A DNA stretch of 64,000 bases from a virus (IMGVR_UViG_3300021295_000001); one strand, 5' to 3'. Shown: positions 1,885-50,077, counted from the stretch's first letter. The notes: generated by a model from the sequence alone, not told the origin. A program made the numbers and translations.

Positions 1885-2199
1885 ATGGCAAAAGAAGAAT
1901 TCGACGCAATCAACAACTCGCAATACAAGGAAGCAATCGCCAAGTACTTCGATTACTCGTTCGACTTCGCCTTCCTGGACATCGTCGCCAGAATCATCGA
2001 CAGGGTCGAGGACTTCTCAGACACCGAGGAAATCTACGAGGCGATGGACTCCGCGCTAATCTACACCGAGGACCAGTGGAGGGTCATGATGCATTATCAA
2101 ACCCCGAGCGAGGCCGACTTCGGGACCGCCTGCGAATACCTTCTGTCTGACGTGGAGGCCATCTGCGAGCACATCGCGGAAGCCTCCGACGAGGCCTGA
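1885..2199 (+). CDS. Small acidic protein, possible Ocr-like DNA mimic
   Basis: GGAGG RBS before ATG 1885; very D/E-rich; segment IYEAMDSALIYTEDQWRVM. Confidence 0.45.
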   Translation: MAKEEFDAINNSQYKEAIAKYFDYSFDFAFLDIVARIIDRVEDFSDTEEIYEAMDSALIYTEDQWRVMMHYQTPSEADFGTACEYLLSDVEAICEHIAEASDEA

Positions 2200-2231
2200 T
2201 TCACGAAACCGCAAAAACGCGCGAATCGTAA

Positions 2232-2240
2232 TGCTAAATT
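2232..2240 (+). promoter_or_regulatory. Putative phage late promoter TGCTAAATT
   Basis: One of 9 copies of (T)GCTAAATT found at gene or operon boundaries. Confidence 0.65.
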
Positions 2241-2307
2241 ATAAGCCCCGCCCAAAAGGCGTGAAAACGGCGCCCCGCACCCAGTGTTCGGGAACGCAGT
2301 ATAATAA

Positions 2308-3475
2308 GGGTGTCCGACGCGGATTCGTCCGCCTCGGGTCCGATTCGGATTCGTCCGATTCGGGACTGACGATGACCCAACGTCGTTAACCAGGGTCGTG
2401 ACGGCGGAACCCCATCAACGGGGTCCGCACGTCGAACTGAGCGGTGCATCGCTCGAAGCGGGTCGGCCCGCGAACAAACTTGCACACCCCATCGGGAGGG
2501 TCGACTCCTTCCGTATGAACGCGGGGATATGACGGGACCCCGTAGGCGCGGTCAAAACCGCGGTTCCCAGACGGCTTCGTCTGGGAGGGGAAGGAAAACC
2601 CCGAAAACCAAAGCGCCGAGCGATAACCACGTTAGAGCCGTGGGCTCTCCGCATCCAGATACGGTACGGGGAGCGCTGGTTGTAGCGCGTCTCGGCACTC
2701 ACGACCGCCACGTCGTTAAACTGCCAACGGTGGCTTCGGGTTCGATTCCCGAACCGTCCTGATAGACAATATCTGGGCGGTGAAGTATGGGCAGGTTGCC
2801 ACAGTCCACCGTTAAACGTCTTGGAGGCGAGACGTTAAATCCCTTCCCGAGCAGCAAGGCACTCGTTAAAAGAGTCTTTCAGTACAGCGTGGGCAGGAGT
2901 TAGTCCCGTTCCTTATAACCGTGGAACGCACGAAAGAGGTCGCCAACATCGGCGACCGCAAGTAATGGTCGGCAATGATTCGCCGATGGGCAAAACACCC
3001 TTAATGTGCCCTCACCCTTTAACGGAACATGGATAGGCTCGGGAGGACCCGCGCGGGGCCATTGAAGGACCTTCTGGTTGAAAGGCGGACGGACCGCGCA
3101 ATTAAGGTGGGTTTTCGGGAGAATAGGAACCAGCGAGAACATCCCGACGTCCTAATGTGTCAGACCAACGCGGTGCACCGCTAACCTGACCGCATTGGGA
3201 CGTTAAACATCCTAACGCGACGCCCAGCAATGGGCTATGCCAAGGGACCGCATCGCGGTGGGTATGGCCACGACGCACCGACGGACCCCGTATTCGGGGA
3301 CCGACTCGGCAGTCATAATGTGTGGCCCTTGGCCCACCCAATGGCGCACGCGGTTCGGCGAGTCGCGATTCTGGGAAACGTGCGCCACAACGGTTGCTCC
3401 CCCGTGGCAGTCAACCGACAGACGGGTCCACAAAAACCCTTCGAAGGTAAGCGCCCAAAAGGCGCTTTTCCTTTT
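2308..3475 (+). ncRNA. Candidate large structured non-coding RNA (~1.15 kb); family unassigned
   Basis: No ORF with phage-like codon usage; TATAAT at 2300; many perfect stems with UUCG, GNRA or T-loop caps; long-range helices; intrinsic terminator at 3449-3475. Confidence 0.7.
3449..3475 (+). terminator. Rho-independent terminator
   Basis: AAGCGCC-CAAAA-GGCGCTT followed by TTCCTTTT. Confidence 0.7.
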
Positions 3476-3481
3476 GTTTGG

Positions 3482-3490
3482 TGCTAAATT
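3482..3490 (+). promoter_or_regulatory. Putative late promoter TGCTAAATT
   Basis: Directly after the terminator and before the neck gene. Confidence 0.7.
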
Positions 3491-3521
3491 CACTGATATT
3501 GCCCTAGGGTTATTGTTCAGC

Positions 3522-4232
3522 ATGGATTTGAAGGATTACATCTCAAACATAAAACTCGAATTGACTGGCGGTTTGCTTGAGTTGGAGATTGACGACGAAG
3601 TGATAGCGAAGGTCGTCAACCAATCGCTCAGGGAGGTCCAAAGGTACATAGACGAATCCAGGTTCATAGAGGTACCTTTCGCCAGTTGCATCGACATCGC
3701 TGGGTTCAAATGCTCGGCGATAAAGAAGGTGTACAGGGTAAGCCCCATAGGGGGCGCGGTGTCTGGCTCGTCCAGCGCCATAGACCCGATGTACGCGCAG
3801 ACGTGGGCCCTGTACGGGATAAACAACGCGACGTACAACATAACGCAATTCGCCTACAACTACGCGTCGTACAACACCGTCCTCCAAATAAGGAACTCCC
3901 TGTCGACAGACCTGGCGTTCAGGATGGACAAGCAGGGTGAGAAACTGTACGTCAACGTATCTGGCAACTACCCCGAGAGAATCGTGATTGAGTACATCCC
4001 CATATTCGAGGACGTTTCCGAGGTCAAGGACGCCTATTGGATTGACATACTCCAGAGGCTGTCCCTCGCCATGACGAAGAGGATTCTGGGCAGGGTCAGG
4101 ACCAGGTTCACCCAATCCAACGCCCTTTGGCAACAGGACGGCGAGACCATGCTCGAGGAGGGCAACAGGGAACTGTCCGAGATAAGGGAGATACTGAGGA
4201 CCAATTCCTCGTTGTTCTACCCGATAGATTGA
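3522..4232 (+). CDS. Neck/head-tail adaptor protein (T4 gp13-like)
   Basis: Start MDLKDYISNIKLELTGGLLELEIDD; C-terminus KRILGRVRTRF..DGETMLEEGNRELSEI is typical of gp13-like proteins. The ORF-track extension from 3237 crosses a terminator. Confidence 0.7.
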   Translation: MDLKDYISNIKLELTGGLLELEIDDEVIAKVVNQSLREVQRYIDESRFIEVPFASCIDIAGFKCSAIKKVYRVSPIGGAVSGSSSAIDPMYAQTWALYGINNATYNITQFAYNYASYNTVLQIRNSLSTDLAFRMDKQGEKLYVNVSGNYPERIVIEYIPIFEDVSEVKDAYWIDILQRLSLAMTKRILGRVRTRFTQSNALWQQDGETMLEEGNRELSEIREILRTNSSLFYPID

Positions 4233-4271: not shown

Positions 4272-6917
4272 ATGGCCGAAAAAAGCAGACTGGAGATGTT
4301 AGCCTCCAAACTAAACAGGAAACGCGAGGAACTAAACCGCGCTGGTTTTCACGTCGAAGGGACAAGCGACATGGACGTCACGTCGAATTTCAACGACGTG
4401 ATGCCGTTCGTGGCGGTTTACGAGAGCACGGTGATGTCGGAGTTCCCAGAACTCGGCTCCATCGACGAGGCCCTATGCGGACACGACCTCTTCACCGAAA
4501 TGACCGAGAACGGCCTTGATGACAAGACCGCGATAGAATTCATCACGGAGACGATTGGGAAGGCGCTTGGGTCGGACGAAGACGACGAAGAACACGTTGG
4601 CGAATCCTCGCTGACGGAGGGTGCTTCCAACTTCCACGGGGACGGTGGCGCCGAATGGTTGCCTTTATTGGTCTTCATGTCTGACGAAGAGGTATGGGAC
4701 AAAATCAAATACTATGCCGAGCAGGAATACGTCGGCCACGAGGATGAGCAGGATTGGGACGAGTTCCTCCAGGAATTCGCCGACGAGCACTACGACGAAT
4801 ACTCGCAAGGCGTCTGCGTCTTGGACGACGACGAGATTAAGGCCCTCGAGGAGAAGATTGACGAGTTCAACTACGAAATTCACAGGCAAGGCGAGTCCAT
4901 CACTGGTACCGAGGAATACGACGACGGCGACATACTGAAGAACTCCGAGACCGAGATTAAGGGCGGTTATTACGAGGGCTATCAGATTTTCACCGAGTTC
5001 CAGTACAAGGACGACGAGAACCTATCCGAGGAACTCAGGAAGCCGTTCCAGGATTTCTACGCGGAAATCAAAAAGGAATTCGGTTTGACCGAACTTTCCG
5101 TCGCCTACAAGGCGTCCAACGGGGAGACTGGCTACAGAATCGTCGAGGAGGCCCGCGACGAAGCCAAGCGCAACCACAGACTCGGAGAATGCGACAAAGT
5201 CAAGGAATCCGTGAGTTGGTCCTATTTCGACAAATTCGACCCCATATTCGACCAATACCTTCCCGATTACGGGGAGGGCGACGACATGGCCACCCAAGCG
5301 GTGACCGCCGTGTGCAAACTCGTTTACAAGTGGTACAACGACGGCGACGTTTTCGACAACGTCATGCAGAGGTCCATCGTCGGGTTCGGCAACGACCTGG
5401 CGTCATACGCGAACTGGCTTTACCACAACGTCCCCGAGACCAGGAAAATCCTCACGGGAATCAAAAAGGTTAGGAAGGACGGGGATTACGAGGACCTACT
5501 CCAAAAATTGGCCGACGCCGTTTTGGACGCCGAAAAACTCGATGGCCTCAGCCAAAGGAAAAAGGAAGGCTCCGTGTACGAAGGCGACTTCCCGTTCTCA
5601 TACGAGTTCCGTAGCGAAAGCGAATACGACGAATCTCTTCACGAAGACGATGACGAAATCGAGGAAGACGATGAACCTTGGGTTGGATATAAGATTTCCA
5701 CACCAGATTTTCCAGATTCGGAAGATGTGTATTTCGACGATTTAGAAGAAGCGAAAAAGGCATTTGATAAACTCATCGACGAAGGAACAAAGCAAGTAAG
5801 ACTGTATGCAGTTCAGGAGGCGGAATTTTCATATGGCGAGGACATCGAGGAATTGTTGTTCTCTTATGACGACGATGACGAAGACGAATCCATCAAGGAG
5901 TCCAGTAAGGACTACTACGAATACCCCGCTGGCTCTGGTTGCCACGTAAGGGAGACCGAATCCAAATTCGTCGCCATAGGCAAAAACGGGGAGACAATCG
6001 GCGAATCCGACACCAAGGCTGGAGCCGAGGCCCTAATCGACGCCCAATGCAAGGAATGCGTTAATGAGGACACCGTGAAGCAGGGTGGCCACTGGGTCAA
6101 CAAAGGCAAGGAAGGCACCCACGGAAAGTTCAGGACCAAGAAGCAGGCCGACGCCCAGCGCAAGGCCATGTTCGCCAACGGATACAAGGAATCCACTGAC
6201 CTTGGGGAAGGTGTTAAATACCACGATTTCTTGGACGATAAGGAAAAGATGAGGGATTTCAAAAAACTATCAAAGAGTGATTTCCTTAAATCGTATTCCT
6301 ATCTGACGGAACTTGAATACGACCTTACCGCTAAAGCGCTTAAAGACAAAAATAAAGCCAACGAATCCGCCGACTTGGGAGAATCCAAGAATAGCGATAA
6401 CCCGTATCTTAAGAACACCCGCATCAAACTCGGCAAAGGCGAGCACGTCAACAAAAACGCTGGCGACCCAGTCAAGAACATGCAGGCCTTCAACCACGCC
6501 ATGGGCGAAGGAATCGACGCCGAAGCCGAACCAGAAGGCGAGTGCGACCACGATTGCGAGGCTTCCATGCTCTCCAACGAGTTCAGCAAAAACGTCAAGG
6601 ACGAATGGGACGCCATCGAGGGATACAACATCCTCAAAACGGAGATAGAGGCGTCGAGCCTCACCGACGAGGAGAAGGCCAAACTGGTCGCCATCGTCGA
6701 CGACATCCGCGGTGAGGAATACAGGCACGTTGGCCAATTGGAGACCGCCGTCAAGACGGTCGCCCCGCAGGCCGACGACATAGAGAAGGGCAAGGAGGAG
6801 GCCGACGGGCAGGAAGCGTCCGCCGAGCATCACGAAGAGCCCGAGGAACACGCTGAGGAAATCGCCTCCGAAGAGGAGGAGACCATCGTGGAGCCCAAGG
6901 AGGGAGAAGGCGAATAG
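4272..6917 (+). CDS. Large acidic modular protein; putative protease-processed virion internal polyprotein with a C-terminal ferritin-like module
   Basis: AAGGAG RBS; repeated linkers ESSLTE, ESLHE, ESIKES, ESTDLGE, ESADLGE; C-terminal EWDAIEGY..IRGEEYRHVGQL. Confidence 0.6.
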   Translation: MAEKSRLEMLASKLNRKREELNRAGFHVEGTSDMDVTSNFNDVMPFVAVYESTVMSEFPELGSIDEALCGHDLFTEMTENGLDDKTAIEFITETIGKALGSDEDDEEHVGESSLTEGASNFHGDGGAEWLPLLVFMSDEEVWDKIKYYAEQEYVGHEDEQDWDEFLQEFADEHYDEYSQGVCVLDDDEIKALEEKIDEFNYEIHRQGESITGTEEYDDGDILKNSETEIKGGYYEGYQIFTEFQYKDDENLSEELRKPFQDFYAEIKKEFGLTELSVAYKASNGETGYRIVEEARDEAKRNHRLGECDKVKESVSWSYFDKFDPIFDQYLPDYGEGDDMATQAVTAVCKLVYKWYNDGDVFDNVMQRSIVGFGNDLASYANWLYHNVPETRKILTGIKKVRKDGDYEDLLQKLADAVLDAEKLDGLSQRKKEGSVYEGDFPFSYEFRSESEYDESLHEDDDEIEEDDEPWVGYKISTPDFPDSEDVYFDDLEEAKKAFDKLIDEGTKQVRLYAVQEAEFSYGEDIEELLFSYDDDDEDESIKESSKDYYEYPAGSGCHVRETESKFVAIGKNGETIGESDTKAGAEALIDAQCKECVNEDTVKQGGHWVNKGKEGTHGKFRTKKQADAQRKAMFANGYKESTDLGEGVKYHDFLDDKEKMRDFKKLSKSDFLKSYSYLTELEYDLTAKALKDKNKANESADLGESKNSDNPYLKNTRIKLGKGEHVNKNAGDPVKNMQAFNHAMGEGIDAEAEPEGECDHDCEASMLSNEFSKNVKDEWDAIEGYNILKTEIEASSLTDEEKAKLVAIVDDIRGEEYRHVGQLETAVKTVAPQADDIEKGKEEADGQEASAEHHEEPEEHAEEIASEEEETIVEPKEGEGE

Positions 6918-6955: not shown

Positions 6956-8635
6956 ATGTTCGGAATCAAATACGCGTTCATGCCACTCGTTCAATACGAG
7001 GACGAAGAGGAGGCCTACATAAGGTCTTTGCGCGAGGCCAAGGAAACCACGTTCGACATATCCGAGGATGGAATGTTCGACAGGGGCAACGCCTATTTCT
7101 ACGCGAGGACTGGTAGCAAGGTCGATTTGGACGGCAAGGAATACACCGTCACGACCGACGAGGAAGGCAACCACAGGATTGGCTATTCCGACACGATATA
7201 CCTTAAGGACGCCGACGGCAACGTAACGACCGTGTCCAAGGCCGAGTTCATCGAGAAGGCCACGCTCCTGAAAGAGGAGGCCAAGCCCGAGGAATACGGC
7301 GTTTGGCAGAACGTCGAGGCATCGAAGTACAAGAGCGGTGACCTCGCCGTTGGCTTCGTCGCCAAAGGCATGTCCAAGGAGGAAGCCGAGGCCAAAGCCA
7401 AGGAACTCTCCGACAAATACTGCAAATTCGGCGCTTGCACCTACGAGGTCAGGAAGGTCGACGAGTCGTTGGCCGAATCAGCCATCGTCGAGGAGCCCAT
7501 CAAGTTGCTCGAACCCAAGTTCGATTCCAGGAAATCCTTCTACAAGAAAGCCAAGGTCGACGAAAGGGAAGACGGCACGAAGATACTTTGGTCGTACAAC
7601 ACCCCAGTCTGCAAGATAAAGGACGGGAAGGCCACGTTGCTCAAGAGGGGTTACCTCGGATGGTTCTCCTCCCCCACCACGCTCCGCCACGTGAAGGACT
7701 TCCTCCAGCAGAACGGATTCAAGATAGGTTCGAAATCGGAACTCGCCAAGATGTACGAAACCGAACGCTACGACGAGTCGCTAATCACCGAGGCGGACGC
7801 CATGAAGGCCAACCTAGACGACGAGAAGGAGGTCGGGGAAGCCAAGGAAATCCTGACCAAGGAACACGACGAGGAAGTGGAGCAGATAGTGGACGTCGAC
7901 GCCAACACCGTCGCGGAACTCAAGGACTCCTACGTCGGTAACGTCATATTGCAATGCCCCGTGTGCAGGACGTTGCTCTACAAGAAGCCAGACGCCATCG
8001 AGAAAGCCGAGGATTCCGACATATACAACGTCGGCGAGGCCTGCCTGCATTGCGGTAGCGAGGACGGATACGGCTTGGTTGGCCAGGTCGCCGAACTGTC
8101 CGTGAAACCAGAAGTGGAGGACGACTCCACCACTGGCAAGGAAACAGATTCCCCCGACGTCGAGCCCGACAAGGAGGGCACCGAGTCCGAGGACGAGGTA
8201 GGCGTTGAGGTCGAGGAGACCGAGAAGGTCGGGGAACCCGTGGTAGAGGAATCGCTCGCCAAGCCCGCAGAGGCCGACGAATTCGACGACGCGTCGTTCA
8301 ACGCGCTGGTCACCGATTTCCTTACCGAGACTTACAACAACGTCACGGGATTCACCGCCAACGAGGTGACGAAGGAAGGCTCGGACATAACCGTGTCTGG
8401 CTCAATCGCCTACGCGAGCGGTAAGGAACGCTCGACCGAGTTCAAACTGAAGGAGTCCGTCGAAGGCGGTTCAATCTCCTGGGAGGGTTCGAACCCGACG
8501 TTCGCTGGCGGTTCGTTCAGATTCGACGTCGTCAGCGAGGGGAACGTGGCGAAGGCCAAGGCCCTGTCCTACGAGATTGAGGCCAAGTCCGTCAACGAGT
8601 CCTACAAGGTCAAGGGGCGCATATCCCGCGCCTAA
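6956..8635 (+). CDS. Acidic modular protein with Zn-ribbon; putative virion internal polyprotein
   Basis: AAGGAGG RBS; linkers SLREA, LLKEE, DESLAES, DESLITEA; CPVC..CLHC; internal SFYKKAKV..SYNTPV..TTLRHVKDFL module. Confidence 0.55.
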   Translation: MFGIKYAFMPLVQYEDEEEAYIRSLREAKETTFDISEDGMFDRGNAYFYARTGSKVDLDGKEYTVTTDEEGNHRIGYSDTIYLKDADGNVTTVSKAEFIEKATLLKEEAKPEEYGVWQNVEASKYKSGDLAVGFVAKGMSKEEAEAKAKELSDKYCKFGACTYEVRKVDESLAESAIVEEPIKLLEPKFDSRKSFYKKAKVDEREDGTKILWSYNTPVCKIKDGKATLLKRGYLGWFSSPTTLRHVKDFLQQNGFKIGSKSELAKMYETERYDESLITEADAMKANLDDEKEVGEAKEILTKEHDEEVEQIVDVDANTVAELKDSYVGNVILQCPVCRTLLYKKPDAIEKAEDSDIYNVGEACLHCGSEDGYGLVGQVAELSVKPEVEDDSTTGKETDSPDVEPDKEGTESEDEVGVEVEETEKVGEPVVEESLAKPAEADEFDDASFNALVTDFLTETYNNVTGFTANEVTKEGSDITVSGSIAYASGKERSTEFKLKESVEGGSISWEGSNPTFAGGSFRFDVVSEGNVAKAKALSYEIEAKSVNESYKVKGRISRA

Positions 8636-49986: not shown

Positions 49987-50077
49987 GGTTCCATAGTTTA
50001 ATGGTAAAACAGCGGACTTATAACCCGTAGCAACAGATAATTGGCTGATACTGGTTCGAATCCAGTTGGAACCACCA
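49987..50077 (+). tRNA. tRNA-Ile(UAU) with long variable arm
   Basis: Acceptor GGTTCCA/TGGAACC + A-CCA; D arm GTTT..AAAC; anticodon loop CT-TAT-AA; 21-nt variable region; T arm ACTGG-TTCGAAT-CCAGT. Confidence 0.9.

Follow-up and report, generated by a model that had tools for sequence, protein, structure and literature searches.

A large structured RNA gene upstream of gp13 in an uncultivated T4-like phage belongs to an uncatalogued RNA family

What does a phage encode in a stretch of about 1.3 kb that lies among its virion genes and contains no protein gene of its own? The question was raised by viral DNA from IMGVR_UViG_3300021295_000001, for which a first-pass annotation, made from the sequence, had proposed a multi-domain structured non-coding RNA of about 1.15 kb. 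To our knowledge, very few bacterial or phage RNAs longer than 500 nt have complex conserved folds (rRNA, group II introns, GOLLD, ROOL, OLE and some others), and all of these have turned out to be surprising in their structures. The DNA analysed here (64,000 nt, referred to as the window) corresponds to bases 11533–75532 of a 129-kb IMG/VR virus record with an estimated completeness of 86%, and all of its genes are on the + strand. The neck protein gene gp13 (PF26809; 3522–4232, + strand), which served as the syntenic anchor, is followed downstream by tail sheath, baseplate hub, wedge and fibre genes and then by genes for a helicase and an anaerobic ribonucleotide reductase. Because of this order of virion genes and the anaerobic ribonucleotide reductase, the phage was assigned as an uncultivated T4-like myovirus of an anaerobe; the rumen as its source is our guess from the sample names (WILK20).

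The gap was described in the first-pass annotation as the only long gene-free stretch, and 2200–3521 is indeed the longest + strand ORF-free span in the window, the runner-up measuring 310 nt. Raw ORF calls place the gap at 2200–3236; counted to the true start of gp13, it extends over 2200–3521 (about 1.3 kb). It contains no ORF longer than 103 aa, and reassignment of stop codons across it yielded no credible + strand frame. The ORFs on either side are complete and separate genes, with their own stop, promoter and start. Large acidic ORFs (2–1858, 4272–6917 and 6956–8635) flank the gap and gp13; they are almost without family matches, with one PHROG of unknown function each.

The annotation had also suggested that the RNA is transcribed from a host-type and a late promoter, pointing to TATAAT at 2300–2305 and TGCTAAATT at 2232–2240. 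Both sequences are present, and motif statistics lend support to the idea. The late-type phage promoter motif TGCTAAATT was counted 8 times in the window, where 0.27 copies would be expected, and every copy is on the + strand. The copies lie ahead of several structural genes, of the RNA (2232–2240, + strand) and of gp13 (3482–3490, + strand, 3' of the RNA terminator), usually 30–40 nt ahead of the start codon and followed by a sequence like nnATGAnAT. GTATAATA (2299–2306, + strand), a −10 motif of the early/host type, has 15 copies where 0.44 would be expected, again without exception on the + strand; 14 of the 15 are found at 27–63 kb among replication-type genes, and the structural half has only the copy at 2299, for which a consensus scan gave no −35 element. 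GTATAATA and TGCTAAATT have the look of an early and a late class of promoter in this group of phages, and the RNA would be transcribed from both. At the other end, the intrinsic terminator proposed at 3449–3475 (+ strand; a 7-bp stem, then a T run) was recovered by a terminator scan, which matched 3449–3467, followed by the T run.

Compared with dinucleotide shuffles, the folding z-scores were −4.38 for 2247–2690 and −6.14 for 2690–3475, versus +0.56 and −2.28 for two coding controls. The first segment (+ strand, 63% GC) is a structured 5' domain specific to the window, and the second includes a variable, highly paired 3' domain (3208–3448, + strand); in the MFE fold the 5' and 3' parts pair with each other. 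The local hairpins on which the annotation had relied are all present (2319–2332, 2345–2358, 2565–2586, 2735–2753 with the loop TTCGATT, and 3222–3235). The strands of its putative long-range helices (2394–2401/2699–2706, 2418–2426/2535–2543, 3149/3191 and 3342/3379) are likewise complementary as it had placed them, although these helices are present as complementarity, none being open to a covariation check. The helix 2394/2699 competes with a local hairpin formed by ACGAC (2701–2705) and GTCGT (2712–2716), which is kept in both homologues described below. A conserved palindromic loop was not evident by eye. On the + strand, CGTTAA occurs 6 times in 2384–3206 and 6 times in the other 62 kb or so.

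We used gp13 as the query and inspected the DNA upstream of its relatives. Two phage assemblies were found to carry an RNA homologue upstream of gp13: L002, a 149-kb IMG/VR contig (L006, L024 and L025 are the same contig) with a gp13 78% identical to that of the window, and L010, a 4.2-kb ENA contig with a gp13 77% identical. Similarity is confined to a core (window 2846–3130, + strand; L002 5348–5584; L010 2483–2696) and to two flanking hairpins, both of which run into UUAAAC. The first is the hairpin ACGAC/GTCGT (2701–2721, + strand), conserved in all three as CACGACC ... GTCG(T/C)TAAAC; a conserved long-range closing partner for its CACGACC anchor was not found in the three RNAs. In the second (3145–3207, + strand), the stem CGTCC/GGACG surrounds a variable hairpin, and its counterpart in L002 and L010 is CGTC-GGCACGAA-GACG followed by TTAAAC. 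Five motifs, namely the loop CAGCAAGGCA, an invariant run around UCUUUCAGUACAGCGUG, the loop U(U/G)AUAACYGU, GCAAAACACCCU and AAUUANGGUGGGU, are found in the window, L002 and L010, and at no other locus in the approximately 1 Mb fetched. The RNA of the window lies where a member of this family is expected, on the + strand between head-side genes and gp13, followed by a terminator and then by the TGCTAAATT motif of gp13; the terminators of L002 and L010 have the same relative position.

The core alignment contains a 35-nt run invariant in the three sequences and a 92% block, compared with 71% identity between the gp13 DNAs of the window and L002, showing that at the sequence level the core is conserved above the neighbouring protein gene. 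RNAalifold predicted 43 pairs in six helices, 9 of them with compensatory changes. In this fold 96.1% of the cells are paired, versus 36–47% with the partners slid, and none of 500 shuffles reached the observed covariation. The clearest example is the hairpin at 2905–2932 (+ strand; CGTTCC/GGAACG, conserved loop UUAUAACCGU), in which 5 of 6 pairs are altered on both sides: the stem reads ACGCAC/GTGCGT in L002 and GCATCG/CGATGC in L010, while the loop U(U/G)AUAACYGU is kept throughout. Helix 4 has five one-sided changes, each through a G-U wobble, and about 25 of 129 cells are G-U, at which the opposite strand would have A-C mismatches; the functional molecule is therefore the + strand RNA. Since only three sequences contain the core, the covariation stems from few independent events, and helix 2 and much of helices 4 and 5, being invariant, neither support nor contradict the fold. 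The L010 homologue, with z = −1.4, folds no better than shuffles. Within the core, the window has a specific 54-nt insertion (2936–2989, + strand) of two hairpins (stems GGTCGCC/GGCGACC and TCGGC/GCCGA), which in the alignment is missing from L002 and L010. A covariance model of the core (R1) scores 236.9 bits at 2846–3130, a value high by construction, as the window is one of its three seeds.

These data bear on two readings that would make the gap something other than an RNA gene. A decayed protein gene or functionless spacer might be suspected, since in L002 and L010 a small ORF takes the place of the window's 5' domain, and since neither the 5' nor the 3' domain is conserved. Against this stand the invariant run and the conserved core in comparison with the 71% identity of the adjacent gene, core indels whose lengths are not multiples of three, and a tblastn comparison with the small ORF and 1281 upstream ORFs of relatives, which gave nothing beyond chance; we consider decay or spacer extremely improbable. 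A DNA-level element, i.e. a replication origin, packaging site or recombination hot spot, would account for the iteron-like repetition of CGTTAA(A), the 13-nt direct repeat CGCCCAAAAGGCG at both ends and the variable content of the locus among relatives. However, the covarying hairpins allow G-U and not A-C and are thus strand-specific, which points to RNA. In addition, the unit is bracketed by promoter motifs and a terminator, and all CGTTAA copies have one orientation and follow the 3' strands of helices. Such an element is very unlikely to be what the locus encodes.

Is the RNA a known one? The annotation had been unable to equate it with tmRNA, RNase P or a self-splicing intron and had called for a covariance search that included GOLLD, ROOL and OLE. 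This search matched no family, and the proposal of a multi-domain structured non-coding RNA on the + strand is supported, the RNA falling outside every Rfam family. At the gathering threshold, the sole Rfam 15 match in the whole window was a tRNA-Ile at 49987; at E ≤ 10, 2100–3600 gave two chance-level matches, and the gap gave no match to GOLLD, ROOL, OLE, introns, RNase P, tmRNA, tRNA or small ribozymes. The ROOL (RF03087) and GOLLD (RF01998) models matched neither the window nor L002 or L010. OLE (RF01071) gave no model match either, and the neighbours are virion genes, whereas adjacency to oapA would be expected of OLE. ARAGORN found no tRNA or tmRNA in the gap and reported only the tRNA-Ile at 49987. 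The RNA resembles tRNA, tmRNA, RNase P and introns in having a T-arm-like hairpin (2735–2753), a large size and many helices, but differs from all of them in giving no covariance model match and in being negative with ARAGORN. The hairpin at 2735–2753, which the annotation had presented as a T-loop hairpin, was not supported as such: it has no conserved equivalent in L002 or L010, and at E ≤ 10 the tRNA covariance model is silent there.

Two points would suit an intron that splices itself, a ribozyme that is mobile, or an RNA that partners an RNA-guided or reverse-transcribing enzyme: group I introns occur in T4-like phages, and close relatives do not have the same content at the locus, as for mobile DNA. 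No group I, group II or known ribozyme model matched at E ≤ 10, though, and the flanking ORFs are complete and separate rather than halves of an interrupted gene. Furthermore, RVT_1 and TnpB domains are absent from the 129-kb record, and no template-like repeat occurs elsewhere. We give this group of explanations almost no credence. A DGR, retron or TnpB partner was rejected specifically, as the defining partners are absent from the phage record.

The extent of the RNA was revised by the comparison. Of the unit of about 1.15 kb in the first-pass annotation, the part at 2700–3210 is common to the homologues, whereas the 5' 450 nt are specific to this phage and the 3' domain cannot be aligned. 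The 5' domain (about 450 nt) has no counterpart in L002 or L010, and the 3' domain (3208–3448) has no sequence similarity to the homologues. Thus, the family unit consists of approximately 2700–3210, a 3' tail that varies, and the terminator, and the 1.15 kb of the annotation is this unit with a lineage-specific 5' domain added. The RNA is about 790 nt in L002 and about 600–610 nt in L010, and in both it is preceded by a small Lys/Glu-rich ORF of 111–113 aa. This ORF is absent from the whole record of the window phage, and the 5' domain has no protein similarity to it. The RNAs of the window and L002 share the R1 core, synteny, the terminator and the gp13 promoter motif, while in the window copy the small ORF is missing and about 450 nt are added as a 5' domain, along with the 54-nt insertion and an unrelated 3' periphery. 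The 5' 450 nt may be a separate or a fused module; a single 1.15-kb transcript is putative.

Other relatives carry different contents at this site. In L107, and in L105 together with L009, the small ORF is present and the family core is absent, and a different RNA of 380–470 nt (group D) separates the small Lys/Glu-rich ORF from gp13 (L107 383–770; L105 2892–3103 with L009 1–265). It has several covarying hairpins and a terminator, and no Rfam match. L105 and L009 are two contigs of one ENA sample which overlap in TTCTGAAA, and they appear to be one phage. A hairpin in the 5' domain of the window (2521–2543, + strand), with the conserved loop GGAUAU..GGGA, also occurs in group D, both in L107 and in L009; the three-way alignment has 6 pairs, 2 of them compensatory, and the hairpin is the top match in the region to the group D model (R2), although weak (E = 0.17). 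A search with nhmmer gave no match between the 5' domain and group D. The 5' domain as a group D homologue was rejected as unproven, the local alignment being suggestive and the nhmmer and R2 results not significant; the hairpin is treated as a motif shared with group D and not as proven homology.

L011 (3587–6000) and L084 (2632–5000) have a 2.4-kb ORF-free region upstream of gp13, with the same promoter motifs and a GC content of 0.36 in the gap versus 0.32 for the locus, these relatives being AT-rich. Blocks of 80% identity occur in rearranged order, and the regions contain a tRNA-Met (L084 4805–4880), a tRNA-like piece (L011, about 3964–4040) and a module that matches the group D model R2 with E = 5e-9 (L011 5245–5314). 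Most other gp13 relatives have upstream gaps of 20–150 nt. GTATAATAT is found ahead of the RNA loci of L002, L010, L105 and L011, and ahead of a tRNA array in L109; early- and late-type motifs are both present ahead of the four RNA loci.

Several further gaps were rejected as RNA loci. Those of L067, L052 and L005 belong to TGA-recoded genes: the apparent gaps (L005/L059 2000–4300, L067 3746–5000 and L052 4092–5000) close under code 4, in which TGA is a sense codon, and one of them, in these AT-rich gp13 relatives, holds a long gene rich in repeats, in which TGA occurs in frame many times. The gaps of L101–103 and L095 contain ORFs of about 99 aa, probably small genes. L109 and L110 have a tRNA array instead of the family RNA. 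This dense array (L109 4950–8000, and in L110) follows the same small ORF family and has TTGTATAATAT promoters repeated inside; it was recognised visually, by its numerous T-arm and CCA-proximal motifs.

The presence of the group D hairpin and of tRNA-like pieces raises the possibility that there is no single 1.15-kb RNA, and that the transcript is a precursor from which at least two small RNAs (group-D-like, tRNA-like and core) are released by RNase P/Z-type cleavage. The segment in question (2651–2761, + strand) has a D-arm-like GCGC-TGGTTGTA-GCGC stem and the T-arm-like hairpin at 2735–2753, which sit exactly between the two modules; the segment is not kept in L002 or L010. In agreement with a precursor, L002 and L010 lack the 5' domain, one of its hairpins is common to an independent 380–470 nt RNA that stands alone in L107 and in L105+L009, and the non-coding regions of relatives contain tRNA or tRNA-like pieces, such as the tRNA-Met of L084 and the piece in L011. 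On the other hand, neither a terminator nor a promoter motif lies between the modules, the tRNA-like segment fails both ARAGORN and the tRNA covariance model, its "anticodon arm" is the conserved 5' hairpin of the family, and the MFE fold joins the 5' and 3' parts. We regard a precursor as possible, though less likely than not.

An RNA that immediately precedes gp13, lies on its strand and ends in a terminator would also suit a cis-acting leader or attenuator controlling the downstream neck and tail genes through that terminator. Yet TGCTAAATT lies between the terminator and gp13 in all six related loci examined (window, L002, L010, L107, L009 and L011). Since the terminator is followed by a promoter motif for gp13 itself and most relatives of gp13 lack such a region (their gaps being 20–150 nt), control in cis is unlikely. 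A length of 600–1200 nt is also far above the known leader size, and in close relatives this site is taken by RNAs that are unrelated. All considered, we rate a leader as highly unlikely.

We conclude that the region is a real + strand RNA gene, that it represents an uncatalogued large phage RNA family, and that the window copy is the largest, composite member of this family. The explanation as a whole, that approximately 2247–3475 (+ strand) is a non-coding RNA gene with dual promoters whose product is a trans-acting, modular RNA of the ornate type, we consider probable. According to it, the RNA would be present throughout infection as a discrete, stable, folded molecule acting in trans. Its conserved single-stranded stretches and the junctions of helix and UUAAAC may form the working surface, possibly a platform for a protein or for other copies of the RNA, by analogy with GOLLD and ROOL. 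In the window phage the core would be fused to, or co-transcribed with, the extra 5' domain of about 450 nt, and since one hairpin of that domain recurs in another, unrelated structured RNA, the transcript would be modular; it may be cut at the tRNA-like segment (2651–2761).

Our best guess as to function is a trans-acting ornate RNA like GOLLD or ROOL, by analogy. ROOL, a multi-domain structured RNA about 580 nt long, was first obtained from cow rumen metagenomes and is often located in prophages and close to tRNAs (PMC5737381); it forms RNA-only multimers (PMC12286853). The family described here is likewise phage-borne, large (600–1200 nt) and multi-helical, with tRNA-like pieces in or beside it and a probable rumen origin, but it gives no ROOL model match, has other conserved sequences and is known from three phages only. 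GOLLD (about 800 nt) is associated with phages or prophages and often adjoins tRNAs (PMC5737381), and GOLLD, ROOL and OLE all form RNA-only multimers (PMC12286853). As in GOLLD, the core is conserved and the peripheral domains are variable; the window RNA differs in lacking a GOLLD match and in being placed ahead of gp13, among the virion genes of a T4-like phage. The family has a defined core of about 285 nt, and its three natural size variants (about 600, 790 and 1200 nt) mark the dispensable periphery. Because of the small size range and the natural deletion and insertion variants, it is a practical target for cryo-EM and functional tests. The genomic setting is also clear, namely a virion-gene module, yet with an early-type promoter.

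Unrelated structured RNAs at one site in close relatives hint at selection for some large RNA at this place, a hint that bears on the question of what ornate phage RNAs do. One could go further and regard the site upstream of gp13 in this group of T4-like phages, whose source is probably the rumen, as a dedicated "RNA cargo" locus, in which interchangeable modular giant RNAs are expressed from early and late promoters as RNA-only or RNA-protein machines. Its contents would be the family RNA (600–1200 nt), the 380–470 nt RNA of L107 and L105+L009, and the 2.4-kb region of L011 and L084, and these might be ornate RNAs that assemble with themselves, for example, or decoys directed at host defence. 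This view is speculative and in our judgement rather unlikely; if true, it would add a new functional class beside GOLLD and ROOL.

The family appears to be rare in the collections searched. The RNA is present in a single copy in the phage record. BLAST of the region against 50,697 GenBank phages gave no match. Exact core-motif patterns recovered only the contig of L002 and chance matches in coding DNA from IMG/VR, only L002's own contig from JGI metagenomes, and, with one exact core pattern, nothing from GTDB genomes. A gapped pattern had four matches in GTDB, about the chance expectation, which were not confirmed by model R1 and were rejected. No additional member was found by R1 over 66 gp13-relative loci or among 10 neighbouring-protein clusters looked up.

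Two minor features of these loci may be mentioned. The small Lys/Glu-rich protein (110–113 aa, without a Pfam family) that precedes the RNA locus in relatives is encoded at L002 4818–5159, L010 1996–2331, L105 2559–2891 and L107 47–382; in more distant phages it is found in unrelated contexts, beside NrdD, a lipase or small genes. The 13-nt sequence CGCCCAAAAGGCG repeated directly at both ends of the window RNA (2249–2261 and 3452–3464) is itself a hairpin; at the 5' end it follows TGCTAAATT and is without a T run, and at the 3' end it is the stem of the terminator.
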